From: a virus
Taxonomy: Duplodnaviria > Heunggongvirae > Uroviricota > Caudoviricetes
DNA length: 64,000 nt
Virus record (IMG/VR): IMGVR_UViG_3300032213_002044
Location: 770-64,769 of that record
Reading direction: 5' to 3' (one strand)
The position numbers and the translations under genes are program-made. Shown one piece after another: positions 826 to 52,999 of the stretch (the stretch's first letter is position 1; each line of letters begins with the position of its first letter). Under the pieces are notes generated by a model. That model searched no databases, had not been told where the DNA came from, and worked only from the letters and a program-made list of their open reading frames with translations.

Positions 826-1101
826 ATGAGCGTAAACGTAACACCTTTGCACGACAGAGTTATCGTGAAACCAGCAGAGAAAGCTGAAAAAACTGCAGGT
901 GGAATTATCATTCCTGATACTGCACAAGACAAACCACAACAAGGAGAAGTAGTAGCCGTTGGTAGCGGAAGAAAAGATGAACCATTGACTGTTAAAGTTG
1001 GTGATGTAGTTCTATTCGGAAAATACGGAGGTACTGAAATCGAATTAGATGGTGATAAATTTCTTTTATTAAAAGAAAGTGATATTTTTGCAATTATTTA
1101 A
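826..1101 (+). CDS. groES: Co-chaperonin GroES (Hsp10)
   Basis: 91 aa; ...[20 protein letters not shown]...[14 protein letters not shown] is the canonical GroES fold; sits immediately upstream of groEL. Confidence 0.95.
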
Positions 1102-1106
1102 ACTAA

Positions 1107-2759
<1,653 letters not shown>

Positions 2760-5950: not shown

Positions 5951-6310
5951 ATGAACTTCAGAACACGCAAACTAATTAAGTACGAAGACCTTAATGCGAG
6001 GGGAACTCTATTCGGCGGACAGGTATTGAAATGGATTGATGAGGAAGCTGCAATCTTTTGTATATGCCAGTTGAGTACCCGAAGTATAGTTACTAAAGCA
6101 ATGAGTGAGGTGAACTTCATATCCTCTGCTAAGTTGGGTGATATTATAGAGATGGGATGTGAGTTAGTACAATTTGGTAATACATCAGTAACGATAGCGT
6201 GTGAAGTAAGAAATAAGGATACAAAGAAAACCATTATCAGAATAGATAAGATAGTATTCGTAGCGGTTGATGAAAATGGAAAACCGACACAACACGGAAT
6301 AATTAAATAA
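5951..6310 (+). CDS. Acyl-CoA thioesterase, hotdog fold (YciA-like)
   Basis: DLNARGTLFGGQVLKWIDEEAAI...VTKAMSEVNF...FVAVDENGKP matches the YciA acyl-CoA thioester hydrolase pattern. Confidence 0.75.
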   Translation: MNFRTRKLIKYEDLNARGTLFGGQVLKWIDEEAAIFCICQLSTRSIVTKAMSEVNFISSAKLGDIIEMGCELVQFGNTSVTIACEVRNKDTKKTIIRIDKIVFVAVDENGKPTQHGIIK

Positions 6311-8767: not shown

Positions 8768-9112
8768 ATGGGAAAGAAGAAACTTAGCACTATGGGTACT
8801 AATAACCCTAGCGGCTCTATTGGTAGCCATAGGAGGTTAACCATAGCTAATTGGGATAAGATAGCGGTGGGGGTAGATAGAGCTAACACTATGGAGGGAG
8901 AGAGTTTCTATGCCATACGGATAGGGAGTTTAGGAGCAGTTATAGTACATAGAGAGATTGATGATGAAGAGTGTGTTATAGTGGAGGTAAGTAACAATGA
9001 GGGGGATAAGAGTGAGAATGGTAAGGTGTGGATAGGGTCTCAAACATTAGAAAACCCCGCAGAGCTGTTGGATAGGTTTATGAACGTACTAACCGAAAGG
9101 GGATGGATATAG
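8768..9112 (+). CDS. Hypothetical protein
   Basis: 114-aa ORF. Confidence 0.45.
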   Translation: MGKKKLSTMGTNNPSGSIGSHRRLTIANWDKIAVGVDRANTMEGESFYAIRIGSLGAVIVHREIDDEECVIVEVSNNEGDKSENGKVWIGSQTLENPAELLDRFMNVLTERGWI

Positions 9113-9235
9113 AAGGGGATAACCCAAAACACCAACATTGCGGACACTAAAAAGAATTCAGTTACAGAGTATAGTATAAAAGCCAATAAGAATAACCATA
9201 ATACAGAAGATAGATTAAATACAGAGTATAAAGAT

Positions 9236-9300
9236 AAAAAGGATAGTATAGGTATAGATAGTACTGATAGTATAGATGATAGGGAGGATAGTATAGGGAG
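9236..9300. repeat. Iteron-like imperfect direct repeats GGATAGTATAG(G), about 4 copies, in a ~1 kb non-coding region
   Basis: ggatagtatagg / gatagtactgatagtatagatgatagg / ggatagtataggg read directly in the sequence. Confidence 0.35.
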
Positions 9301-9402
9301 TGGTGAGGGTCCGACAACCAATCCACCACCGCAACCCACAGCTCCCCAATTCTTTTTTTAACCACAATCGATATATATACGGAGGTTAAACAAACAACGG
9401 AT

Positions 9403-9555
9403 ATGGAGCAAGGATTAAGTTTTATAGTGGTGATATGGTTATGTGCACTCGCTATAGTATTACACAATGGGCCTCTCTTTTTAGGGGTATTTACAATAGG
9501 GTCTCTTTATCTTTTACTAAGGGGTAAGAGAAAGGGATGGAGATGGAATCGATAG
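9403..9555 (+). CDS. Small hydrophobic protein (50 aa), unlisted ORF
   Basis: MEQGLSFIVVIWLCALAIVLHNGPLFLGVFTIGSLYLLLRGKRKGWRWNR; lies inside an otherwise non-coding region; weak. Confidence 0.2.
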   Translation: MEQGLSFIVVIWLCALAIVLHNGPLFLGVFTIGSLYLLLRGKRKGWRWNR

Positions 9556-10032
9556 TATTTACACCATATCTAAAAGTGGAGTGTCAAAGCGAGTAAAGCG
9601 TGTAATATTCTGAATTATACACTTAAGTAGTTATTTCTTATCTCTATAACGAAGGTGAAAAGTGGGAGGAAGTGGGGAAAAGTGGATATAGATGTATATG
9701 TCTAACGACCAAATTTTTTTTACGTGTTAGGAGTGTACAAAGGTACGAATAAAAATCCATATGACAAAGCCTTAGACACAGAATTTTATTCTACATAATG
9801 GGGTATAAGTAGGAAAATATACTGCGACCCGTCGGGCTGAGAGGAATAAAATTCTGTTTACAATTGTATAAGGGTTTACATATGTGATTTAGAGAGACCT
9901 AAACTTTTTAGACAACCCTAAACAATATAAACAGAGTACAAAAAAATAAAAACGAAATCCTATACATCTGTTATATAATGCGCCTTATGTTAAATAGGAC
10001 TGAAGATTCAAAGAAAAGATTGTACTATAGGG

Positions 10033-10070
10033 GGAAATAAAAAACCCAGCCATAGAGATAGCCGGGTTAA
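10033..10070 (-). terminator. Rho-independent terminator for the minus-strand island
   Basis: On the minus strand: AACCCGGC-loop-GCTGGGTT then TTTTTTATTT, immediately downstream of the 10105 stop. Confidence 0.55.
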
Positions 10071-10104
10071 CGTATGAATCAAAAAAAATAAACAACAATA
10101 TCTT

Positions 10105-10443
10105 TTAGTCAAACCACTGTTTACGATTGGTTTTTATATTCTTAATGCCAGGGTCTGAGAGTTTAGGGTCTTCACCAATCTTTTCTGCTGCCTTACGGAT
10201 TCCTTCTGTCCATGCTGAATCCCCTACTGCCCCTATCTCTTTTGCTTTCTTTAATTGTTCTGTGGATAACTCACTACCTACTGTCTGAGACATGAATTGT
10301 TTGGTGTGATATGTACCCAACGGACGAGTGAATTGTTTTAAGTGTTCAGCCTTACGGTCTAAGTACTCCATAAACTCATTCTCTGGCAGTTTAAACAACT
10401 CCTCTTCTGATAACTCTATAAATTCTTTTTTGTTTCCGTCCAT
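10105..10443 (-). CDS. Hypothetical protein
   Basis: 112-aa ORF, minus strand. Confidence 0.5.
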   Translation of the reverse strand: MDGNKKEFIELSEEELFKLPENEFMEYLDRKAEHLKQFTRPLGTYHTKQFMSQTVGSELSTEQLKKAKEIGAVGDSAWTEGIRKAAEKIGEDPKLSDPGIKNIKTNRKQWFD

Positions 10444-10446
10444 ACT

Positions 10447-10752
10447 CTATGCGGTTTTAAATTCAAATGGGACCAAACCCATATCCATTAATTGTGCCTT
10501 AGCCTCTTTAGCCCCACCATTTATTGCTTTGATGGCAATCTGCTCTTCAATCCATAACTCAGCCTTAGCCGGCGTTACAAACTTCTTTACTCCTCCACTC
10601 TTAAGGGTTACTGAGACCATCTCCGGAAAGGAAGGGGATGGAGCTGATTCTACTTTATAGTTTCTGTATTTTTTCATTTTTTGTTTTTTAAAAGAAATAA
10701 GCGTTGTGAATACGATAGATAGGAGCGTGGTATCTCTCACCCACTCTATCAT
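10447..10752 (-). CDS. Hypothetical protein (alternative internal start gives 10447-10677, MKKYRNYKV...)
   Basis: 101-aa ORF on the minus strand, co-directional with its neighbours. Confidence 0.45.
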   Translation of the reverse strand: MIEWVRDTTLLSIVFTTLISFKKQKMKKYRNYKVESAPSPSFPEMVSVTLKSGGVKKFVTPAKAELWIEEQIAIKAINGGAKEAKAQLMDMGLVPFEFKTA

Positions 10753-10933
10753 TGTTTAGTGAACCACCTTGCACCATAGATACATAGGGGGAGGGAACAA
10801 CCTCCATAAGACAAGTTCCGTGATACTCATCTATGTGGACAAGTTTAGCTCTGAGGGTAGGAGAGAAGTTTTCTGATACCTCCGTACCTATCACTTCGTT
10901 TAGTTCTATTAATTTGCTATCGCTTCTATTCAT
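10688..10933 (-). CDS. Hypothetical protein
   Basis: 81-aa ORF, minus strand. Confidence 0.4.
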   Translation of the reverse strand: MNRSDSKLIELNEVIGTEVSENFSPTLRAKLVHIDEYHGTCLMEVVPSPYVSMVQGGSLNNDRVGERYHAPIYRIHNAYFF

Positions 10934-10994
10934 AGTGTATCGTTTATATATTAAAGGTACAGTAAAGGTTTGATATATCCAAGCCTTTTACGGA

Positions 10995-11240
10995 TTATTT
11001 TTTACTTATTTTTCCCAATATAGAGTAGATATACCCATCAATCTTCTCATCTTCCCTCATACGACGGTCTCCATAGAACAAACCTTCATTGAATACCCCA
11101 TCTACTATACTTGCATATGAGAACACATCAATTATCAAATCATCACTCACCTCTTTAAAGTTGTTTAGGATTAAGTGGTTCATAGTATATCGTTTTATTA
11201 TATAGTAAAGATAGGGCATAGGGCTGATACGACCAAGCAT
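10995..11240 (-). CDS. Hypothetical protein
   Basis: 81-aa ORF, minus strand. Confidence 0.4.
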   Translation of the reverse strand: MLGRISPMPYLYYIIKRYTMNHLILNNFKEVSDDLIIDVFSYASIVDGVFNEGLFYGDRRMREDEKIDGYIYSILGKISKK

Positions 11241-11408
11241 TTACCCACTTATTTTTAAACATATTTAGGGGGGTATATGTGGATAACTTTTTAAAAATAA
11301 ATCGGATTTTGCTTGACTTTGTGGACGGAAAGCCGTATCTTTATAGGGTGGTAGGGCGGGAATAGATAGAGAGACAGCCGGTCCCTAACTCGCTGAGAAC
11401 CAATACCT

Positions 11409-11487
11409 TATAACTCGTTGATACTGAGGGAGATTAATTTCAAATAAATTTGTATATCCCAATCATTATACCTATATTGTATAAGTA
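11409..11487 (+). promoter_or_regulatory. Extended promoter/leader repeat, partial copy A (TAACTCGTTGATACTGA ... ATGAGAG)
   Basis: Shares the TAACTC(G/A)TTGATACTCA core and the ATGAG start context with the copies at 11786, 17075, 27130, 29205 and 56208. Confidence 0.4.
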
Positions 11488-21484: not shown

Positions 21485-22735
21485 TTGCAAACAGAAAGAA
21501 AGCTAAAGCAAAATAATATGAGCGATAATATTCGTAAATTTAAAAATCAATTGAGAGATAAAGTATTGAAGGTTCAGGATATGAGTGATGCTGATATTGC
21601 TATGATTAAAGAGATGATGGCGGATTCTTCTAATAGAAGTGAAACCCTTCCTTCTATGATACCATATAGACCGGTGGATGCAGATGATTTCCCAATTGGT
21701 TCGTATGGATTAGAAGTAACAGGTAAACACTATACTCACTTCTTTAATGTTTCCGACCAATATAGGTTTACTAATTCGGATATAATTAAGTTTATAGATG
21801 AGTGTGGGTTAGAACAAATTCATTCTAGAGAATATTACGTTAACTCTTCACATAGCGCATCACGTTGGTATGAGATGAAAGATGATGTAGGTGTGTTACT
21901 ATTGAACGTTACTTATATGCCTCTTAATGGCAAACTAATTCGTAATGCTAGAGATATAGCAACTATTAGAATCTATTCAAATGTTATAGAATCGGTTTAC
22001 AATACAATCGTTGAAAAGGTAAAAGGTATAGCAAAGAAGCAGAGGGAGGAATCTAATAATGTTTCATTGGTTATTGCCAGTAGAAATGGGTATGATACTC
22101 AATCGTTTGAATTACCTAAACAACAAATGAATATTGAATTGAATTATGGTAAGGATTTTACTAAAGTGCATGAAAAGATTTTAAGTACACTTAACAAAAA
22201 GAAAGGTAAGGGATTAGTTCTATTACACGGAACTCCTGGTACAGGAAAGACTCACTACTTAAAGTATTTGGCTTCTAAGATTAAAGGTAAGAGAGTGTTA
22301 TTCATTCCACCTCACTTAGCTGATTTCATTACTTCACCAGAGATGACACCTTTCTTAATTCAAAATGCTAACTCTATTCTTTTCATCGAAGATGCGGAGA
22401 GAGTAATTACAGACAGAAACACCGGAGGTTCAGTAGGTGTATCTAATATCCTTAATTTAACAGATGGAATTCTTTCTGATATCCTAAACATTCAGATTGT
22501 CGCAACATTCAATATGGATAAGAGAAAGATTGATGAGGCTCTATTGAGAAAGGGTAGATTGATTGCTGAGCATGAGTTCGGTAAGTTATCAATTGAAGAT
22601 TCTAATTCAGTATTGAATCATTTAAAGATTCCATATGAAGCAACTAAGCCGATGACACTAACAGAGATTTATAATGTGAATGAAGCGGAGTATAAGAGTG
22701 AGGAGAAAGGTAAATCAACAATTGGATTTAGATAA
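21485..22735 (+). CDS. AAA+ ATPase
   Basis: Walker A LLHGTPGTGKTHYL, Walker B ILFIEDAERV, and an arginine-finger region. Confidence 0.7.
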   Translation: MQTERKLKQNNMSDNIRKFKNQLRDKVLKVQDMSDADIAMIKEMMADSSNRSETLPSMIPYRPVDADDFPIGSYGLEVTGKHYTHFFNVSDQYRFTNSDIIKFIDECGLEQIHSREYYVNSSHSASRWYEMKDDVGVLLLNVTYMPLNGKLIRNARDIATIRIYSNVIESVYNTIVEKVKGIAKKQREESNNVSLVIASRNGYDTQSFELPKQQMNIELNYGKDFTKVHEKILSTLNKKKGKGLVLLHGTPGTGKTHYLKYLASKIKGKRVLFIPPHLADFITSPEMTPFLIQNANSILFIEDAERVITDRNTGGSVGVSNILNLTDGILSDILNIQIVATFNMDKRKIDEALLRKGRLIAEHEFGKLSIEDSNSVLNHLKIPYEATKPMTLTEIYNVNEAEYKSEEKGKSTIGFR

Positions 22736-23163
22736 TGAGAGAGTGTGGTGATTGTGGAAGATGTTGTGATGGTAGATTCAAAGCAGAAATCTTTGGAGTA
22801 CCTATGGGTAATGGCATTAAGTGTACCTACTATGATACTAAATGTGGATGTACTATATATGAGAATAGACCAGAGCATCCTTGTCGTTCCTACAATTGTG
22901 AATGGTTAACGAATGAAGAGATACCGGATTGGATGAAACCAACTCTATCAAATGTTGTCATTTCACATAAAAAGCATCCAACCGATGATACACTTTCCTA
23001 TTATGATGTAATGGAACATAGTAAAAAAATGGATTCGGTTGTATTGAATTGGGTATTGAGGTGGGCGTTGGGTAATGGGAAAAACATAATATATGAGGTT
23101 GATGGTAAGCTATATACTATAGGTAATCCACAATTTTTAGAAACATTAGATAAGATTGTATAA
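22735..23163 (+). CDS. YkgJ/UPF0153-like Cys-cluster protein (CxxCxxCC)
   Basis: MRECGDCGRCCDG N-terminal motif. Confidence 0.4.
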   Translation: MRECGDCGRCCDGRFKAEIFGVPMGNGIKCTYYDTKCGCTIYENRPEHPCRSYNCEWLTNEEIPDWMKPTLSNVVISHKKHPTDDTLSYYDVMEHSKKMDSVVLNWVLRWALGNGKNIIYEVDGKLYTIGNPQFLETLDKIV

Positions 23164-23190
23164 GGGGAGTTTGATACTCCCTTTTTTATT
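23164..23190 (+). terminator. Rho-independent terminator
   Basis: GGGAGT-TTGAT-ACTCCC hairpin then TTTTTT. Confidence 0.65.
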
Positions 23191-23225
23191 TAAAACCTAA
23201 TATTTATGTATATAAGAAAAATATT

Positions 23226-23558
23226 ATGAGATTAAAGGATATTGTATCTAATGTGGTTTCTATACCAGTGATTAATAATCAACCATCTAAAATTGCTCCA
23301 ATTGATGAAGCTAAGAAATTAGAGTTCTTCAAAGCTAACTTTATAGTAACTTCAGCTAAAGCAGGCACAATACTATTATTACCGGCTACTATAGGTGATT
23401 TGGCTAAGGTGGAAAAGTATAGTGTGAATGAGGTATATAATGAGATTATTAAATATGCAAAGAAGAAGACGGGATTGGATTTCTATGCGAGACATACACA
23501 GGGTTCATATCAGTTTACAATTGAATTGGATTACGATTCTTTAATAGCTAAATTATAA
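23226..23558 (+). CDS. MIKLKDIL-family protein 1
   Basis: N-terminus MRLKDIVSN. Confidence 0.5.
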   Translation: MRLKDIVSNVVSIPVINNQPSKIAPIDEAKKLEFFKANFIVTSAKAGTILLLPATIGDLAKVEKYSVNEVYNEIIKYAKKKTGLDFYARHTQGSYQFTIELDYDSLIAKL

Positions 23559-24145
23559 TGATTAAATTAACATCCATATTGTCGGAAGACCTTCGTAAGT
23601 GGTTCGGTAGTGGAAAGACCGGTGGGTGGGATAGATATAATACTAAGGGTGAGAAAGTTGGTAAGTGTGGGGATAGTGAGGAAGGTTCAGCTTATGTAGC
23701 ATGTTTATCAAATGAGAAGGCGGCTAAGTTGGGTAAAGATGGTAGAGCATCATTTGTAAAAAGAAAGAGAGCGGCACAATCCGATGCAGGGGATGCTAAA
23801 AAAGGTGGTGAACAAAAGAAGGGACAGAAACCTACATTTGTAAAGACAGGAGCAAGTGAGGGAGTATCAGAAGATTGGTCTCAAAAATATAAAAACTCAA
23901 TTGATTGTAATAACCCTAAAGGTTTCTCACAGAAAGCACATTGTGCTGGTAAAAATGAAAGTATGAATTTAGAAGAAAAGTTAAATCTATTTTTAGAAAA
24001 GAATGTTCCAACTGACCCACAGAAATGGGCGGCATCTATAGCTGCGGCTAAAAGAAAGTTTGATGTTTATCCATCTGCTTATGCAAACGGATGGGCTGCA
24101 AAGAACTATAAAGAGAAAGGTGGTGGTTGGAAAACTGCTAAATAG
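23558..24145 (+). CDS. MIKLKDIL-family protein 2
   Basis: N-terminus MIKLTSILSEDL; Lys/Gly-rich middle. Confidence 0.55.
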   Translation: MIKLTSILSEDLRKWFGSGKTGGWDRYNTKGEKVGKCGDSEEGSAYVACLSNEKAAKLGKDGRASFVKRKRAAQSDAGDAKKGGEQKKGQKPTFVKTGASEGVSEDWSQKYKNSIDCNNPKGFSQKAHCAGKNESMNLEEKLNLFLEKNVPTDPQKWAASIAAAKRKFDVYPSAYANGWAAKNYKEKGGGWKTAK

Positions 24146-24151
24146 GATAAT

Positions 24152-24721
24152 ATGATAAAGTTAAAAGAAATATTAAACGAAGCTTGTTGGACAGGATATA
24201 AGCAGGTTGGTATGAAAAAGAAAGGGGATAGACAAGTTCCTAACTGCGTACCTGTTAATGAAAGTGAAACTCAATCAGTAGAATGTGCGGAGTGTGGATG
24301 GGAATGGGATTTATCCGATGGTGGTAAAGACCCATATCTTTGTCATAAATGTGGACACGATAATGGGGATGATTATGATGAATTAGATGTGGAGGATTAT
24401 GAGGAAGAGGATTTCTTAAACTTTTTAAAAGGATATACTACGGAGATAAACGAAGCAGAATATCAGGGTAGAGAAGTGAAGTTGGGTAAACCAATGCAAG
24501 GTGATGTTAAGAAGTTTAAGGTATATGTAAAGAATCCTGCTGGTAATGTTATTAAGGTAAACTTTGGGCATGGTGGTACTTCAGCGGCTGCGGCAGGTGA
24601 GGAAACAATGAGAATACGAAAATCAAATCCCGATAGAAGAAAAGCATTTAGAGCAAGACACAATTGTGATACACCAGGACCTAGAACAAAAGCAAGATAT
24701 TGGAGTTGTAAAAAATGGTAA
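24152..24721 (+). CDS. MIKLKDIL-family protein 3 (Cys/His-rich; acidic DYDELDVEDYEEED tract)
   Basis: N-terminus MIKLKEILNEA. Confidence 0.55.
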   Translation: MIKLKEILNEACWTGYKQVGMKKKGDRQVPNCVPVNESETQSVECAECGWEWDLSDGGKDPYLCHKCGHDNGDDYDELDVEDYEEEDFLNFLKGYTTEINEAEYQGREVKLGKPMQGDVKKFKVYVKNPAGNVIKVNFGHGGTSAAAAGEETMRIRKSNPDRRKAFRARHNCDTPGPRTKARYWSCKKW

Positions 24722-24722
24722 T

Positions 24723-25292
24723 ATGATTAAGTTAAAAGATATATTAACCGAAGGTGTTCGTAATCCTGCTAGTATAAAAGCGTATTATGAAGCATTGTGC
24801 AAGGATTTAAAAATAACACCTCTGCCTGTAAAATTTAATAATATTGGTAAGGGTGGTGCTGCAATAACGTTCAATCCTAAAACAATGAAAGCTCTTTACA
24901 TTTCATTTAATGTAAACAGAATGGAAGACCCGGAATATGCCGTTATACATGAGATAACACATCAGATAAAATTAGAAACTGAAAAGGATGCTTATATAGG
25001 TAAAAGAGACCAATCTGCTAAGTTTAAAAAATTAGAAAACAAATTGGTTGAAAAATATATGTATTCAAAATTTTCTAATTTATTATGGAAAGAAAATAAA
25101 GAAATGAATGAAAAGTTTTCAGTACAAGGTATGCGTGCGAGAGAAATAATATCTACTATATTAACAAAGACGGATTTTGCAGCAGGAGATATTGATTCTC
25201 AAAAGAAACACAAAAGAATGATAGATGATTTGGTAAACATTCTTAATAACTTTTATGAAAAATACAATATAGATAAAAAAATTACATTGTGA
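24723..25292 (+). CDS. MIKLKDIL-family protein 4 (contains HEITH zinc-peptidase-like motif); start moved to the internal Met
   Basis: Listed ORF 24666-25292 has in-frame MIKLKDILTEG at 24723, directly after the upstream stop. Confidence 0.5.
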   Translation: MIKLKDILTEGVRNPASIKAYYEALCKDLKITPLPVKFNNIGKGGAAITFNPKTMKALYISFNVNRMEDPEYAVIHEITHQIKLETEKDAYIGKRDQSAKFKKLENKLVEKYMYSKFSNLLWKENKEMNEKFSVQGMRAREIISTILTKTDFAAGDIDSQKKHKRMIDDLVNILNNFYEKYNIDKKITL

Positions 25293-25837
25293 TACGATTA
25301 AAAGATTTACTTTCGGAGACAGATAAACGATTTGAGATACCAAAAAATAAGTGGGCTCCAATCATGCGTTCCGAACTACCTCGTTTTAAGGCAATAATAT
25401 ATGATTTGATTGCAACTGCTTATGCACCAATAGGTGGTCATTCTAATGTAAAAGATAAAGAAGACCTTCCTGATGAGGGTGATTTCTTTGATGTGATAGA
25501 TGTAGATGGTGATGATGAAATAGATGCGGTTACGATAGCTAAATACAAAACAGCTGGTAAGAAGTTTGTTGCATTAGGGCATGATGGTTCTTCAGCAGGT
25601 AAATCGGCAGCTGTGAATCATCAAGTGGATAAACTAAAGAAGGGTGGATATTATGTAGAGGTTTCCGGTAAGATGAGAGATATATTTATGGGGAAAGGTT
25701 TAGTACCCGTTACCGATGAGGATGCCGTTCGTAGAGCATTAAAAGGTAAAGAACTTAAATGGAATGGTGATGGTTCATATGATAGAAAAATAGCTGGAAG
25801 TATGCACACCAAAATGATGTTTGGAAAACCGAAATGA
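25289..25837 (+). CDS. MIKLKDIL-family protein 5
   Basis: N-terminus MIRLKDLLSETD; 182 aa; clear paralog of the next gene. Confidence 0.55.
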   Translation: MIRLKDLLSETDKRFEIPKNKWAPIMRSELPRFKAIIYDLIATAYAPIGGHSNVKDKEDLPDEGDFFDVIDVDGDDEIDAVTIAKYKTAGKKFVALGHDGSSAGKSAAVNHQVDKLKKGGYYVEVSGKMRDIFMGKGLVPVTDEDAVRRALKGKELKWNGDGSYDRKIAGSMHTKMMFGKPK

Positions 25838-26382
25838 TAAGATTAACTGAAATATTAAATGAGTTAGAAATACCTCCTAATAAGTGGGTAACCTTAGATT
25901 TAAAATCCATAGATAATGAGGGTATAGAGGAGATATGGGATATGTATAAAACTACCTACTTAAATGCAGGTATGGATTTATCAGCTAATTCTGCTTCCGA
26001 ACTCCAATCTAAATACAAAGCAACTGCATTGAAAGATGTAGATTCGGATAAGAAGCCAGATGCTTTCATCATATACAAACCAACTAGATTTGGTAATAAG
26101 ATTGCCCTATTGGGAACTAACAATAAGAAGAGTGCAAAATCAGATGTAGTTAAAAAGGTTATCCAATTGTGTAATACAAATGGATGGTTTATTGAAGCTA
26201 GTTTGAAGATGGAGGATATTATGAAATCATCTGGAGCACCAGTGGTTAGAGATGAGCAAAAGATAATGGATATATTGGGTAGTGATAAGAACCCTGAATT
26301 TATAGGAGATGGATATTACACTCGTAAGTTATCCAAAGTTAACAAACGAATTGTAAAAAGGATATACGGAAAACCGAGATAA
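25834..26382 (+). CDS. MIKLKDIL-family protein 6
   Basis: N-terminus MIRLTEILNELE; 182 aa. Confidence 0.55.
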   Translation: MIRLTEILNELEIPPNKWVTLDLKSIDNEGIEEIWDMYKTTYLNAGMDLSANSASELQSKYKATALKDVDSDKKPDAFIIYKPTRFGNKIALLGTNNKKSAKSDVVKKVIQLCNTNGWFIEASLKMEDIMKSSGAPVVRDEQKIMDILGSDKNPEFIGDGYYTRKLSKVNKRIVKRIYGKPR

Positions 26383-26398
26383 ATTAATATTTATACCT

Positions 26399-27070
26399 AT
26401 GAGATTAAAAGATATACTAAAAGAATCAACTGAAGCATCCGACATCATAAAAGATTTGGATAAGGTAAGAACTGATTTAATAAAGAAAGTGGATGTTCTT
26501 ATTGCTAAAAAGAAGAAACTTTATTCGGATGTAGATATTACTACACCTATGTCGGCGGATGAAAAGAAATTAGATAAGGATATACAAGATATATTTTCTC
26601 AAATCCAACAGATAATCCAACAAAAAAGAAAGATTAAGAACGAATCCCTAAACGAAGGTAAATACTATGTAGGGTATAACAAAGGAAGAGGACAAGGAAC
26701 AGGAGTATTTAAAGATGTGTTTTCAACATATAAGGATGCTAAAAAAGAAGTAGAGAAAATTGAAAAGCAAAGAGGTGGTTCGTATAATCAAATTGCTTAT
26801 TATGTAGCAGATGAGAAAGGTAATTTTGTTCGTGAGGTGATGTTAGGAGAAGGTAGAGGAATTAAATCTATTCAATCAGATTTAGATAAAACAGTTATTG
26901 CGATAGAATCCGAAATTGCTTCTTATAAAGCAACCAAAGGAACACCACAAGAAAAGAAGCACATCGATAACCTTAAGAAACTACATCCTATTAAAAAGAA
27001 ATTACAATCGGAATTAGATATGGTGGTTAGTGGATTGTACAGAGATGCTGAGTTAAAGATAGAGGATTAA
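26399..27070 (+). CDS. MIKLKDIL-family protein 7
   Basis: N-terminus MRLKDILKEST. Confidence 0.55.
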   Translation: MRLKDILKESTEASDIIKDLDKVRTDLIKKVDVLIAKKKKLYSDVDITTPMSADEKKLDKDIQDIFSQIQQIIQQKRKIKNESLNEGKYYVGYNKGRGQGTGVFKDVFSTYKDAKKEVEKIEKQRGGSYNQIAYYVADEKGNFVREVMLGEGRGIKSIQSDLDKTVIAIESEIASYKATKGTPQEKKHIDNLKKLHPIKKKLQSELDMVVSGLYRDAELKIED

Positions 27071-27094: not shown

Positions 27095-27122
27095 AACCCA
27101 TTGATTTTCAATGGGTTTTTTG
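27095..27122 (+). terminator. Rho-independent terminator
   Basis: AACCCATTGA-TTTT-CAATGGGTT then TTTTT. Confidence 0.7.
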
Positions 27123-33961: not shown

Positions 33962-34003
33962 TCTTATTTTCGATATTTATTATCGTAATATAGTTTATTC
34001 AGT

Positions 34004-42322: not shown

Positions 42323-42889
42323 GTGTCTAATAATATAATCAAAACATTTGAAAACTTTATATCAACGGAAGAATGTGATTTTATTTTAAATAAATGTAAG
42401 GAAGAATTAACTTTAAAAGCTGCGGAAGTTTATGTTGCTAATTCTAATGATAGATATGATACAAAAATTAGAAAATCATCGATTGGTTGGATATCCGATT
42501 TGGGATTTTTAAATGAAAGATTGACAAGCAAATTAAGAGAAACTTTCAATATAAATGGAATGGAAGTTACAGGATTAGGAGATTTTCAATTTACTGAATA
42601 TAAAGAAGGTGATGAGTATAATTGGCACACCGATGGTGATAATACAATCTTTAGAGATAGATTTACATCAATCGTAATTCAGTTAAATGATGGTTATAAT
42701 GGAGGGGTTTTAGAAATTAAAAATATTAAAGGTGAATTAGTACCAATAGAAAATAAAATTGGTACACTATATATTTTTGATTCAAGACTACTTCATAGAG
42801 TAACACCGGTTGAAACGAATGTACGATATTCATTAGTAAATTGGATATCATTAGTTAAGACCGATTTAAAAAAACAAAATATAATATGA
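42323..42889 (+). CDS. 2OG-Fe(II) oxygenase, prolyl 4-hydroxylase-like (paralog B)
   Basis: EYNWHTDGD (HxD), LLHRV, RYSLVNW; same N-terminal (T/S)xEECDFI(I/L) as paralogs A and C. Confidence 0.6.
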   Translation: MSNNIIKTFENFISTEECDFILNKCKEELTLKAAEVYVANSNDRYDTKIRKSSIGWISDLGFLNERLTSKLRETFNINGMEVTGLGDFQFTEYKEGDEYNWHTDGDNTIFRDRFTSIVIQLNDGYNGGVLEIKNIKGELVPIENKIGTLYIFDSRLLHRVTPVETNVRYSLVNWISLVKTDLKKQNII

Positions 42890-44133
42890 AAAATGTAATT
42901 GTTATTGGAGGAGGAACTGCGGGTTGGTTGACTGCTTTATCCGTTAATAAATTTTGGAAAGATGCTTCCGTTACCTTAATTGAAAGTTCTAAGATAGGAA
43001 TTTTAGGTGCGGGTGAAGGTGGTACACCAAATTTCGGAGCATTCTTATCTCTATTAGGAATAAATCAAAATGATTTTTATAAGAGAACAGGGTGTACGAG
43101 TAAAATTGGATTAACTCTAACGAATTGGACAGGTGATGGCAAGAGTTCATCACATCTTTTTACAGGCCCTAAACCTAATGAGTTTAAGCAAAATTTTGCA
43201 TATCACTTTGATGCTAGAATGGTGGCGGAATATTTGAAAGAGATATCTTTATCTAGAGGTGTTAAATGGATTGATGGTGAAGTTGATAATGTAGGTAAGG
43301 AAGGAGATGATATCCATTCTGTTTCACTTAAGGATGGAACTGATATTAAAGATATAGATTTTATATTTGATTGCAGTGGATTTGCTAGAATTATCATAGG
43401 TAAAGTTCATAATGAAGAGTGGATTGATTATTCCAAATATCTTTTATTGAATAGAGCTATGGCATATTTTCTACCACAAGAAAATCAATATTCAATAGGA
43501 GATGTTACCCACACTAACATGATTTCAATGAATTCAGGATGGATGTGGCAGATACCATTACAACATAGATGGGGATGTGGATATACATTTAACTCAGAAT
43601 TTATTACCGTTGATGAAGCTAAAAAAGAGGTAGAAGATTATATTGGTAAAGAAATTACTATACAAAAAGTATTTGATTTTAAGCCTGGTACACATAAGAG
43701 GAGTTGGATAGGTAATAGTGTTGCAATTGGATTATCATATGGATTCATAGAACCATTGGAAGCTACTTCGTTGATGTCAACTATAATGCAATTAAGGAGA
43801 ATAATAAGTGCTAAATTCGATGTTTCTCTTAGAGATAGATTTAATGATACTTGCTCTAGTATCAATGAGCAAAATATGATGTTCGTTAGATATCATTATT
43901 TAGCCGAAAGGTTTGATACTCCTTTTTGGAAAGCATCATATGAAATGCCTATTCCTGAGAAGTTACAACTTATATTAGATGCGGATAATAATATAATCCC
44001 AAAAACAAATGCTGAATTACTGAAAATTTTTGATTTAAAAGAAGTGGATGAAATGGAATTAACTTTCTTTACTTATAATTATCAAATGATTTTTAAGAAA
44101 AATAAAAAAGTTTCAATAAAAGAATTAATATAA
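42886..44133 (+). CDS. Flavin-dependent halogenase family protein (tryptophan-halogenase-like)
   Basis: VIVIGGGTAGWLTA FAD motif (GxGxxG followed by W) and GWMWQIPL (WxWxIP), plus FIEPLEATS. Confidence 0.7.
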   Translation: MKNVIVIGGGTAGWLTALSVNKFWKDASVTLIESSKIGILGAGEGGTPNFGAFLSLLGINQNDFYKRTGCTSKIGLTLTNWTGDGKSSSHLFTGPKPNEFKQNFAYHFDARMVAEYLKEISLSRGVKWIDGEVDNVGKEGDDIHSVSLKDGTDIKDIDFIFDCSGFARIIIGKVHNEEWIDYSKYLLLNRAMAYFLPQENQYSIGDVTHTNMISMNSGWMWQIPLQHRWGCGYTFNSEFITVDEAKKEVEDYIGKEITIQKVFDFKPGTHKRSWIGNSVAIGLSYGFIEPLEATSLMSTIMQLRRIISAKFDVSLRDRFNDTCSSINEQNMMFVRYHYLAERFDTPFWKASYEMPIPEKLQLILDADNNIIPKTNAELLKIFDLKEVDEMELTFFTYNYQMIFKKNKKVSIKELI

Positions 44134-52620: not shown

Positions 52621-52999
52621 GGGGGTGCCTGGTTTTGACAGGTACGATGAGTTAGTACGTTGATGCAAGCAGGGTTAGATGGAAATCCTTAAATACCTAT
52701 CGAACAATAAACGACGTAGAATTATCTACAATGACCTTCGAAGATGCAATGGCATTCGTTGGTGCTGATTACGCTGTAGCAGCCTAATCTCTCCCGCACA
52801 CATCGTGGGATATAAAATAGAATGTGTACCAAGGTGGAAAAGTGATTGAACCCGAAATCGAATCACCTATTGTTTATCGGTTGCCGATGGTGAAGAACCA
52901 ACCGAATATTTTGTTTGTTAAGAAAAACAAACTAAGCTTGTGAATGAGGTTTATTAAATCCGTATTTGGACGAGGGTTCGACTCCCTCCACCTCCACCA
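52621..52999 (+). ncRNA. ssrA: tmRNA (SsrA), phage-encoded
   Basis: 5' GGGGGUG pairs with 3' CACCUCC-A-CCA including a G3:U wobble; T-arm GGTTCGACTCCC; tag reading frame ...GADYAVAA followed by TAA. Confidence 0.85.

Follow-up and report, generated by a model that had tools for sequence, protein, structure and literature searches.

A tandem array of seven small genes lies in a 64,000-nucleotide (nt) stretch of a tailed phage genome (Caudoviricetes; IMG/VR record IMGVR_UViG_3300032213_002044, positions 770 to 64,769), referred to here, at its full length, as the window. The seven open reading frames (ORFs), labelled P1-P7 in order along the + strand (23226-27070), encode proteins with divergent bodies and a shared N-terminal peptide of nine or ten residues, termed the leader. 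Judged from sequence comparisons, this decapeptide is probably a capsid-targeting propeptide of the kind used by phage T4, carried by a hypervariable array of genes for internal-head cargo. The kind is known already from the T4 capsid-targeting sequence (CTS); what is new is the consensus, the lineage that carries it, and the scale. The array and its boundaries are as follows (bp, base pairs; aa, amino acids).

23162..23184, + strand: intrinsic-terminator-like hairpin and T-run, 9-bp stem with 4 GC pairs, TTTATTTAAA tail; closes the preceding AAA-ATPase/Cys-rich gene pair and bounds the array upstream
23226..23558, + strand: P1, 110 aa; leader MRLKDIVSN (23226-23252), a 9-residue variant with N instead of E at its end
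23558..24145, + strand: P2, 195 aa; leader MIKLTSILSE (23558-23587)
24152..24721, + strand: P3, 189 aa; leader MIKLKEILNE (24152-24181)
24723..25292, + strand: P4, 189 aa; leader MIKLKDILTE (24723-24752); basic body
25289..25837, + strand: P5, 182 aa; GTG start; leader MIRLKDLLSE (25289-25318), short variable linker, GNAT-like globular domain
25834..26382, + strand: P6, 182 aa; leader MIRLTEILNE (25834-25863); paralogue of P5 at 30% identity
26399..27070, + strand: P7, 223 aa; leader MRLKDILKE (26399-26425), a 9-residue variant
27095..27117, + strand: intrinsic-terminator-like hairpin and T-run, 10-bp stem, TTTTGTTTGA tail; downstream boundary of the array

The window has a GC content of about 33% and its genes lie nearly all on the + strand. 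In a six-frame regular-expression scan of the whole 64 kb, the leader pattern of the seven starts, M(I)[KR]L[KT][DES][IL][LV]x[EN], was found at the starts of P1-P7 only. The initial annotation had described seven tandem, translationally coupled genes for proteins of 110-223 aa between two terminators, and all of these elements were recovered where it had placed them. The junctions from P1 to P7 are a 1-nt overlap, a 6-nt gap, a 1-nt gap, two 4-nt overlaps, and a 16-nt gap, that is, overlaps or gaps of at most 16 nt throughout. P4 starts at the ATG at 24723, 1 nt past the P3 stop; the ORF list had put a GTG start at 24666. When the bodies were compared all against all by BLASTP after removal of the first 11 residues, the sole similar pair was P5/P6 (E = 2e-17) and every other pair had E > 0.1, in line with the claim that the bodies are divergent save for the genes at 25289 and 25834. 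Six of the seven mature parts are basic (isoelectric point, pI, 8.8-9.6) and that of P3 is about neutral (pI 6.5); hydrophobic segments are absent from all seven, which would be soluble proteins. Searches of Pfam and PHROGs gave no functional annotation for P1-P7, and when 10 kb of the window was compared with 50,697 phage records by megablast, zero matches were returned.

To follow the leader beyond the window, IMG/VR was searched with a degenerate DNA pattern for M-I-K-L-K-D-I-L-x-E, which gave at least 131 exact matches in at least 120 loci (numbered below with an L). Counts of leader loci, leader ORFs, clusters, and cargo are among the matches listed and are therefore lower bounds. All listed matches stand at ORF starts, 0-59 codons past the preceding in-frame stop, on contigs of 4-369 kb with 25-46% GC. 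With a relaxed score, the 120 listed loci were found to contain at least 217 leader ORFs, whose bodies form at least 107 clusters unrelated by BLAST. Tandem arrays recur among them; that of L081, for instance, comprises nine genes and that of L069 five or six. In bacterial and archaeal genomes totalling 596 Gb, the exact pattern was matched only 15 times, nearly always on contigs of metagenome-assembled genomes and mostly in the company of further leader genes; the leader is virus-specific. Its carriers are essentially uncultured: when two abundant families with the leader were compared with phage isolates by tblastn, there was either no match or a match to an internal domain only. Literature searches found no paper with the motif strings and, for CTSs combined with Flavobacterium or Bacteroidetes, only papers on T4 and SPN3US.

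The positions at which the leader is conserved correspond to those that matter in T4. Among 140 variant leaders the best kept residues are L4, I/L7, L/I/V8, and E10, and positions 5, 6, and 9 vary; in 43 homologues of P4, L4, I7, and E10 are invariant and positions 3, 5, 6, and 9 are variable. Homologues of P5 carry the leaders MIKLIDLLNE, MKLLKILAE, and MKSLYELYLE, in which the register shifts and the hydrophobic pattern and the Glu are kept. T4 peptides read from NC_000866 are MKTYQEFIAE|A (ipII and ipIII), MKTFKEF...ITE|A (ipI), MAKINELLRE|S (gp24), MELITE|LFDE (Alt), MLKEQLIAE|A (gp22), and MNEPQLLIE (gp21), and the T4 CTS and the window leaders have the same arrangement, M-x-x-hydrophobic-x-acid-hydrophobic-hydrophobic-x-E. 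In T4, a CTS is found on IPI, IPII, IPIII, Alt, and gp24 (Mullaney & Black 1996, as reviewed in PMC9026906, PMC5694885, PMC3012670). For the encapsidation of IPIII its ten N-terminal residues are enough; targeting is served by residues 4 and 7 and processing by residues 8 and 10, and Asp at position 10 stops processing and leaves targeting intact (PMC9026906). Positions 4, 7, 8, and 10 of the leader are thus those that T4 mutagenesis tied to targeting or processing (PMC9026906). A common N-terminal peptide of about ten residues stands before unrelated mature parts in all seven genes and in the 107 or more clusters, with hydrophobic residues at positions 4, 7, and 8 and Glu10, except that P1 has N where the others have the Glu.

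Most of the 114 representatives of the leader proteins had no Pfam match. The cargo that was recognized includes wall hydrolases (phage lysozymes, tail lysozyme, Peptidase_M23, and Hydrolase_2), which are common among virion proteins, as well as ART-PolyVal and ADPrib_exo_Tox, NUDIX, RNase_T, 2'-5' RNA ligase, Zeta toxin, ATP-grasp enzymes, and NT5C. This range of cargo bears on the proposal that the seven genes are diverged tandem paralogues whose N-terminus is the slowest-evolving remnant and has no tagging role. P5 and P6 are true paralogues and L081 contains several paralogous leader genes. However, members of the array differ in family or fold (P5 and P6 GNAT-like, P4 with HExxH, P3 with Cys modules and phrog_7595), the unrelated clusters span lysozyme, M23, ADP-ribosyltransferase (ART), NUDIX, RNase_T, ATP-grasp, and others, and in an alignment of the 114 representatives M1, L4, and E10 alone are nearly invariant, with a mean column identity of 5%. 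Common descent of the whole array is, on these grounds, extremely improbable.

Linkage to head genes was examined by clustering the larger ORFs of the 120 listed leader loci and identifying the families by Pfam and PHROGs. At least one head gene of the type found in T4 or in the Flavobacterium phage vB_FspM_immuto (immuto) was found in 46 of the 120, with Peptidase_S77 in 19, Gp23 in 16, T4-type TerL in 15, and Portal_T4 in 13; an unannotated Ala/Glu/Lys-rich putative scaffold is encoded in 18. The proteases of these loci align with T4 gp21 and immuto gp070 and have invariant catalytic His, Ser, and Asp, and the capsid proteins are closest to those of immuto (53%), Microcystis phage Mel-JY01, and Rhodothermus phage RM378. 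In the reverse test, leader ORFs were found in 13 of 80 listed loci selected by their protease, all on the protease strand. The order of the head operon is TerL, leader genes, portal, gp073-like gene, S77 protease, leader genes, scaffold, and major capsid protein (MCP). Homologues of P2 (63-75%), P3 (52-69%), and P1 (29%) are contained in the head operons of L013, L056, and L096. Those of P2 lie between TerL and portal in L013 and after the S77 protease in L056, those of P3 adjoin TerL/portal in all three loci, and the weak P1 homologue, with the leader MIKLRDLLNE, belongs to L056.

The initial annotation had also proposed to look for a prohead protease consensus, and a candidate is found in the leader itself. 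Where they align with the maturation site of T4 gp23, FLTE|AEIGG, all related MCPs read QL[VIL]xE, and the next residue is A, S, N, or V, in most cases A; the leaders end in I/L-L-x-E. At the sequence level, the MCP motif, hydrophobic-hydrophobic-x-Glu, is the same as that of leader residues 7-10, a putative cleavage motif. Several of the locus proteases start M.KGLLIE, like T4 gp21 with its LIE-9, and one scaffold starts MAKDILKEA. The T4-style capsid-targeting reading put forward in the initial annotation is favored by sequence pattern, conservation, virus specificity, linkage to head genes, operon position, and the motif at the homologous cleavage site of the capsid protein. Peptide-level selection, the P5 model, the cargo types, array turnover, and the promoter class before P1, all described below, speak for it too.

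In the model that these comparisons suggest, hydrophobic residues 4 and 7 would bind the scaffolding core of the assembling prohead, and the tagged proteins would be enclosed once the gp23-type shell closes. A gp21-type (Peptidase_S77) prohead protease would then cut after Glu10, within hydrophobic-hydrophobic-x-E, and the mature proteins, freed inside the head, would exit with the DNA at infection. The array would be a fast-turnover locus in which cargo genes are gained, lost, and reordered and the tag is retained. For P1-P7, packaging, cleavage after Glu10, and ejection are what we infer from this model. The initial annotation had called two of the members consistent with injected effectors. 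Cargo types (ART, lysozyme, M23, and GNAT-like proteins) are the sole basis of this idea, in which injection would be a prediction.

Operon position also raises a related alternative. T4 genes 67 and 68, which encode prohead core proteins, occupy the same operon place as the leader genes of the relatives, and the leader could target the prohead core on proteins that themselves serve in assembly or form part of the core, as T4 gp67/gp68 do, and that are broken down or expelled at maturation and never reach the next host. Homologues of P2 and P3 are found in many loci amid TerL, portal, and protease, where T4 has gp67/gp68, and those operons also contain genes for small proteins whose N-termini are related. 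Enzymes among the cargo (ART, lysozyme, NUDIX, exonuclease, and GNAT-like proteins) and fast turnover, on the other hand, have more in common with T4's internal proteins and with Alt than with structural core proteins, which leaves a purely core-forming array a distinctly unlikely explanation. A core-protein role may nevertheless apply to P2 and P3, and core and delivery roles may be split among members. The small proteins in question, encoded between the portal and protease genes (L056:6166-7013; L096:154-507; L013, reverse complement, 5979-6284; immuto gp072), start MKLKELKQIVKEE, MKITKERLKEIIKD, MTKEELKQIVREE, and MNKQDLIELIKEV. Their amphipathic pattern is different from, and related to, that of the leader and recalls the N-terminus of T4 gp67 (MEGLIEAIK); they may form a second class of core-binding N-termini.

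A secretion signal had been mentioned as another possibility. More broadly, the leader could be an export, membrane-targeting, or other localization signal in the infected cell, or a degradation tag, unrelated to the capsid. The tag is N-terminal, short, and amphipathic, and some of the cargo are cell-wall hydrolases. Against this, P1-P7 contain no h-region, twin-arginine motif, or predicted transmembrane segment (the maximum 19-residue Kyte-Doolittle mean is 1.48), and the leader has mostly charged or polar residues at positions 5, 6, and 10, with no RR. Secretion finds no support because the leader has no hydrophobic core. Since the leader is also virus-specific, is linked to T4-type head genes, stands inside head operons, and ends in the motif of the capsid protein's homologous cleavage site, a localization or degradation signal is very unlikely.

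Whether the conserved unit is a peptide or a nucleic acid was assessed with 200 leaders from loci L003-L122, taking codon usage in the same loci as background. Usage at codons 2, 3, 4, 8, and 10 agrees with this background; the codons are TTA, CTA, CTT, or CTC for Leu4 and TTA, TTG, or CTA for Leu8, at near background frequencies. The window's own leaders vary synonymously as well (ATT/ATA, AAA/AAG, TTA/CTT, and GAA/GAG), and replacements are conservative at the protein level (K/R, I/L/V, and D/E/N). No conserved sequence was found upstream of the leaders, and the leader gene starts gave no Rfam family and no stable RNA fold (mean free energy -2.7 kcal/mol vs. -3.0 kcal/mol at 107 other gene starts). 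Because Leu codons vary synonymously, replacements are conservative, and neither upstream sequence nor RNA structure is conserved, selection acts on the peptide. Conservation at the RNA level without synonymous change, which the initial annotation had named as a competing explanation, does not describe these leaders, in which Leu4 and Leu8 draw on both codon families.

Several observations weigh against the capsid-targeting reading. NUDIX, P-loop kinase, and ATP-grasp cargo are not typical virion proteins, and immuto, a relative in culture, carries no more than about 3-4 leader genes, with gp231 (MIKLIDLLTE), gp099 (MIRLQEIVGL), and gp082 (MRLLELLRE) as candidates. No head gene was found in the window or L123, in the about 74 kb covered of the window's scaffold, or in the close relatives L144-L151. 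The P1 leader has N in place of Glu and, by analogy with the T4 data, P1 could be targeted without being cleaved. The candidate promoter ATATTTAT, described below, is rarer before leader genes (6/55) than before other genes with an upstream gap (187/873). Lastly, codons 5-7 prefer AAA-GAC-ATA beyond the background (window 23238-23246 and equivalents). Ile7 is encoded by ATA in 141 cases, ATT in 11, and ATC in 3, as against 73, 98, and 16, respectively, for Ile2 of the same peptides, and Asp6 by GAC in 95 and GAT in 59 (62% GAC), as against 17-26% GAC (74-83% GAT) in the same loci. The window leaders use GAT at Asp6, yet ATA is still preferred. Codon-pair context, tried as a cause of the bias at codons 5-7, was rejected for Asp6 and would explain the bias no more than partly at Ile7 and Lys5. 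Given this bias, the leader may have a second role at the nucleic-acid level.

Taken further, the conserved start would be a nucleic-acid element throughout, either a (re-)initiation enhancer for coupled genes in hosts that do not use Shine-Dalgarno sequences or a recombination homology cassette. In addition to the bias of codons 5-7 beyond peptide constraint, the translational coupling of the genes, the turnover of array content between close relatives while the leader stays, and the high AT content of the leader (GC 0.23 vs. 0.28 at other gene starts) speak for such an element. It is nonetheless unlikely: Leu4 and Leu8 switch between TTR and CTN, and Lys3, Ile2, and Glu10 are encoded, at background usage; the replacements are those expected of a protein; homologous cargo has re-registered leaders that keep the hydrophobic pattern; neither a distinctive RNA fold nor upstream conservation was found; and highly expressed structural genes of the same phages have no leader. 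The codon bias could coexist with a peptide function. A more speculative version, which we regard as unlikely, is that the leader does two jobs, the peptide loading cargo into the prohead and the DNA repeat of about 30 nt (core AAA-GAC/T-ATA) serving as a crossover site for swapping, capturing, and reordering effector genes. This would account for both the bias at synonymous sites and the fast turnover in which every gene keeps its tag, and the phages would then possess a built-in gene-cassette system for injected proteins.

The individual members of the array differ in what can be said of their bodies. That of P1 is basic (pI 8.8) and has no assigned fold; P1 had no Pfam match, and its PHROGs matches were all above E 0.04. 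The P2 body (pI 9.6) is made up of small modules (phrog_27331, 12753, and 23735) that recur, like those of P3, in many marine phage proteins. P3 has two Cys-containing parts, the CWxGY...VPNCVP module and a CxxC...CxxC stretch, together with a linker of acidic character and a C-terminal domain that is conserved (phrog_7595). The initial annotation had called it a Cys/His-rich acidic protein; the richness stands (8 Cys and 4 His), and the acidity is true only of a local stretch, because the overall pI is 6.5. Its C-terminal domain (24446-24721, residues 99-189) recurs in over 30 of the leader loci; immuto gp099, whose N-terminus reads MIRLQEIVGL, contains it as well. The CWxGY...VPNCVP module (24164-24280, residues 5-45) matches internal positions of at least 7 different PHROGs, and small modules of this type look like a shuffled building set of virion-associated proteins.

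The HExxH protein that had been noted among the members is P4, with HEITH, in which H76, E77, and H80 are invariant in the 43 homologues. An AlphaFold2 model of P4 was poor (predicted local distance difference test, pLDDT, 64) and Foldseek gave nothing below E 0.1; to call P4 a metalloprotease from HExxH alone is a guess. The model of P5 has a pLDDT of 90.7, with residues 1-13 forming a low-confidence, detached helix and linker ahead of the confident domain, and the linker is rich in indels among homologues. In a Foldseek search of the PDB with this model, the top 50 matches were all of the GNAT superfamily; RimI (5isv) was the best at E 3.5e-4, TM scores were 0.4-0.5, and those of GCN5/PCAF were about 0.5. 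Going by the P5 model, the bodies of P5 and P6 would have the GNAT alpha/beta fold. P5 has no Pfam match; GHDGS and EVSGK are conserved motifs of its family. A distant homologue, pT24 gp057, starts MVNISEYLEE. The body of P7 is basic, Lys/Glu-rich, and probably helical.

The window is probably part of a large T4-like myovirus distantly related to immuto, with a Bacteroidota host. The window and its flank share GroES/GroEL, PhoH, a phosphoesterase, and a syntenic baseplate block with immuto (160 kb), and the 94-kb ENA metagenome scaffold that contains the window encodes gp25-like and wedge baseplate proteins 10 kb further downstream. The head module of immuto is T4-type: genes for a gp20 portal and a gp23 capsid protein are accompanied by one for a scaffold of acidic composition and one annotated 'prohead core protein serine protease'. 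A scan of IMG/VR with a protease profile gave no contig of the window's lineage among the matches listed. A T4-type head would be expected for the window phage because of the genes and baseplate synteny that it shares with immuto.

IMG/VR contains close relatives of the window, on contigs 164-238 kb long. Relatives with a P5 of 80-92% identity vary in which genes make up the array and in their order, and the leader is kept on every gene. In the closest, L144 (IMG/VR 3300032293_000813; 164,499 bp, P5 92% identical), the place of P7 is held by a 312-aa protein that is 44% identical. One 352-aa leader ORF of L144 (7834-8892) has a P2-like start (MIRITSILSEDLRK) and a 94% match to P3, which suggests that P2 and P3 were fused in L144 or split in the window; it is followed by an extra 208-aa leader gene that is absent from the window. 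The two genes directly upstream of the array (21485-23163) are translationally coupled; they encode an AAA+ ATPase (416 aa, PF00004) and a Cys-rich protein of 142 aa (phrog_9155, E 1e-33), and both are 92-94% conserved at the same position in L144.

One further feature precedes P1.

23200..23207, + strand: ATATTTAT, candidate promoter, 26 nt upstream of the P1 ATG

This motif was sought at -60 to -10 of genes with an upstream gap of at least 40 nt in about 200 related loci. It was found upstream of 21% of the gapped genes, at a distance of 25-45 nt, as against 0.9% expected from motif density. In related phages it belongs to a class that stands before the starts of structural-module operons, and it precedes 17 of 20 head-completion-like and 12 of 13 gp073-like (post-portal) genes. 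It is a candidate late promoter of the phage clade. Its position before P1 would fit late co-expression with the head genes; this is only suggestive, because just 6 of 55 gapped leader genes carry it. In the window alone, a 14-mer around ATATTTAT is not enriched (3 found vs. 2.4 expected), and sigma-70-type promoter scans of the window gave background level. Other occurrences are at 33973 and 46556 in the window, at about 18764 in L123, and in many IMG/VR loci. The reverse complement of ATATTTAT contains ATAAATA, the core of the T4 late promoter, in the opposite orientation.

A second repeated element, the 20-mer TTCGTATCTTTACTATGTAA (at most 3 mismatches), has six copies on the + strand (17149, 27198, 27370, 28030, 29290, and 30376), as against 0.02 expected. 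The copies front small gene cassettes that flank the array, with a TTG box about 20 nt upstream, and none fronts the array itself. The element looks like a Bacteroidota-type (TAnnTTTG-like) promoter class. Elsewhere in the window, a complete tmRNA gene (52621-52999, + strand) with the tag peptide DVELSTMTFEDAMAFVGADYAVAA was found in agreement by ARAGORN and Rfam (RF00023, 101 bits, E 2e-38). GroES (91 aa, 44% to immuto) and GroEL (545 aa; PHROG 5725, E 1e-176; 55% to immuto and 62% to bacterial GroL) are encoded at 826-2759 (+ strand). The stretch at about 9040-11240 is the sole one with minus-strand ORFs, has a GC skew of -0.05 as against about +0.25 elsewhere, and is flanked by long non-coding gaps (9113-9402, 9556-10126, and 10661-11487); it could represent an inserted module. 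Some auxiliary functions are not usual in phages: a tryptophan-halogenase-like gene in the window (42886-44133; phrog_2928, E 8e-93) and, in L123 (11291-11842 and 13090-14775), genes for a peptide deformylase-like protein and a carbamoyltransferase.

If the leader works as the CTS does in T4, a string of ten residues would be a computational handle on the proteins injected by a large group of aquatic T4-like phages, most of them uncultured. The cargo families, among them ADP-ribosyltransferases, peptidoglycan hydrolases, the GNAT-like pair, and many unknowns, would be candidates for host takeover in the first minutes of infection and for anti-defense. CTS loading would then be old and widespread in the T4 superfamily, beyond the T-even phages, and would scale to arrays of seven to nine genes. 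Alternative tags for the engineering of protein delivery would also become available.

Other systems that load proteins into a shell offer partial parallels. Many head-loaded proteins of the phiKZ-like giant phages (phiKZ, 201phi2-1, and SPN3US), their inner-body and ejection proteins, are cut after Glu in a short motif by an S80 prohead protease distantly related to gp21 (PMC5694885). Their propeptides mostly exceed 100 residues, and the motif has a small residue, S/A/G-x-E. The leader differs from these in its length of 9-10 aa, in the L/I/V at its P3 residue (the third before the cut), and in the Pfam family of the linked protease, Peptidase_S77. In encapsulins, a short conserved peptide suffices to bring unrelated cargo into an HK97-fold shell, as is proposed for the leader. 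Encapsulin tags are usually C-terminal and uncleaved and bind the shell, not a scaffold core, and no DNA, protease, or ejection is involved. The Dar anti-restriction system of phage P1 (DarA/Hdf-dependent) packs accessory proteins into a myovirus head and injects them against host defenses, loading them through an ordered hierarchy of protein-protein contacts, and is not known to use a common short N-terminal tag. The polyvalent proteins that Iyer et al. reportedly described in 2017 from phages and conjugative elements are said to fuse many domains in one giant polypeptide and are thought to be delivered with the DNA. Their domains overlap the leader cargo (ART-PolyVal, lysozyme, M23, and Zeta toxin), which is here distributed over separate small, tagged genes.

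The closest likeness is to the T4 internal proteins. Like the array, these carry a tag of 9-10 residues on unrelated, mostly basic proteins (six of the seven window bodies are basic too), and the tag ends in the hydrophobic-x-E motif of the gp21 protease. T4 and the relatives of the array have the same head families (S77 protease, gp22-like scaffold, gp23, and gp20), T4 Alt is an ADP-ribosyltransferase, as is one class of leader cargo, and the internal-protein loci of T-even phages are hypervariable between relatives, as is the leader array. The two differ in consensus, MIKLKDILxE here and MKTYQEFIAE in T4, and in lineage, the leader belonging to a distant T4-like branch whose nearest members are Flavobacterium phage immuto, Microcystis phage Mel-JY01, and Rhodothermus phage RM378. 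Unlike the T4 set, much of the leader cargo consists of recognizable enzymes, in a system known from sequence alone. In scale, arrays of seven to nine tagged genes and at least 107 cargo clusters compare with a handful of such proteins in the T-even phages.

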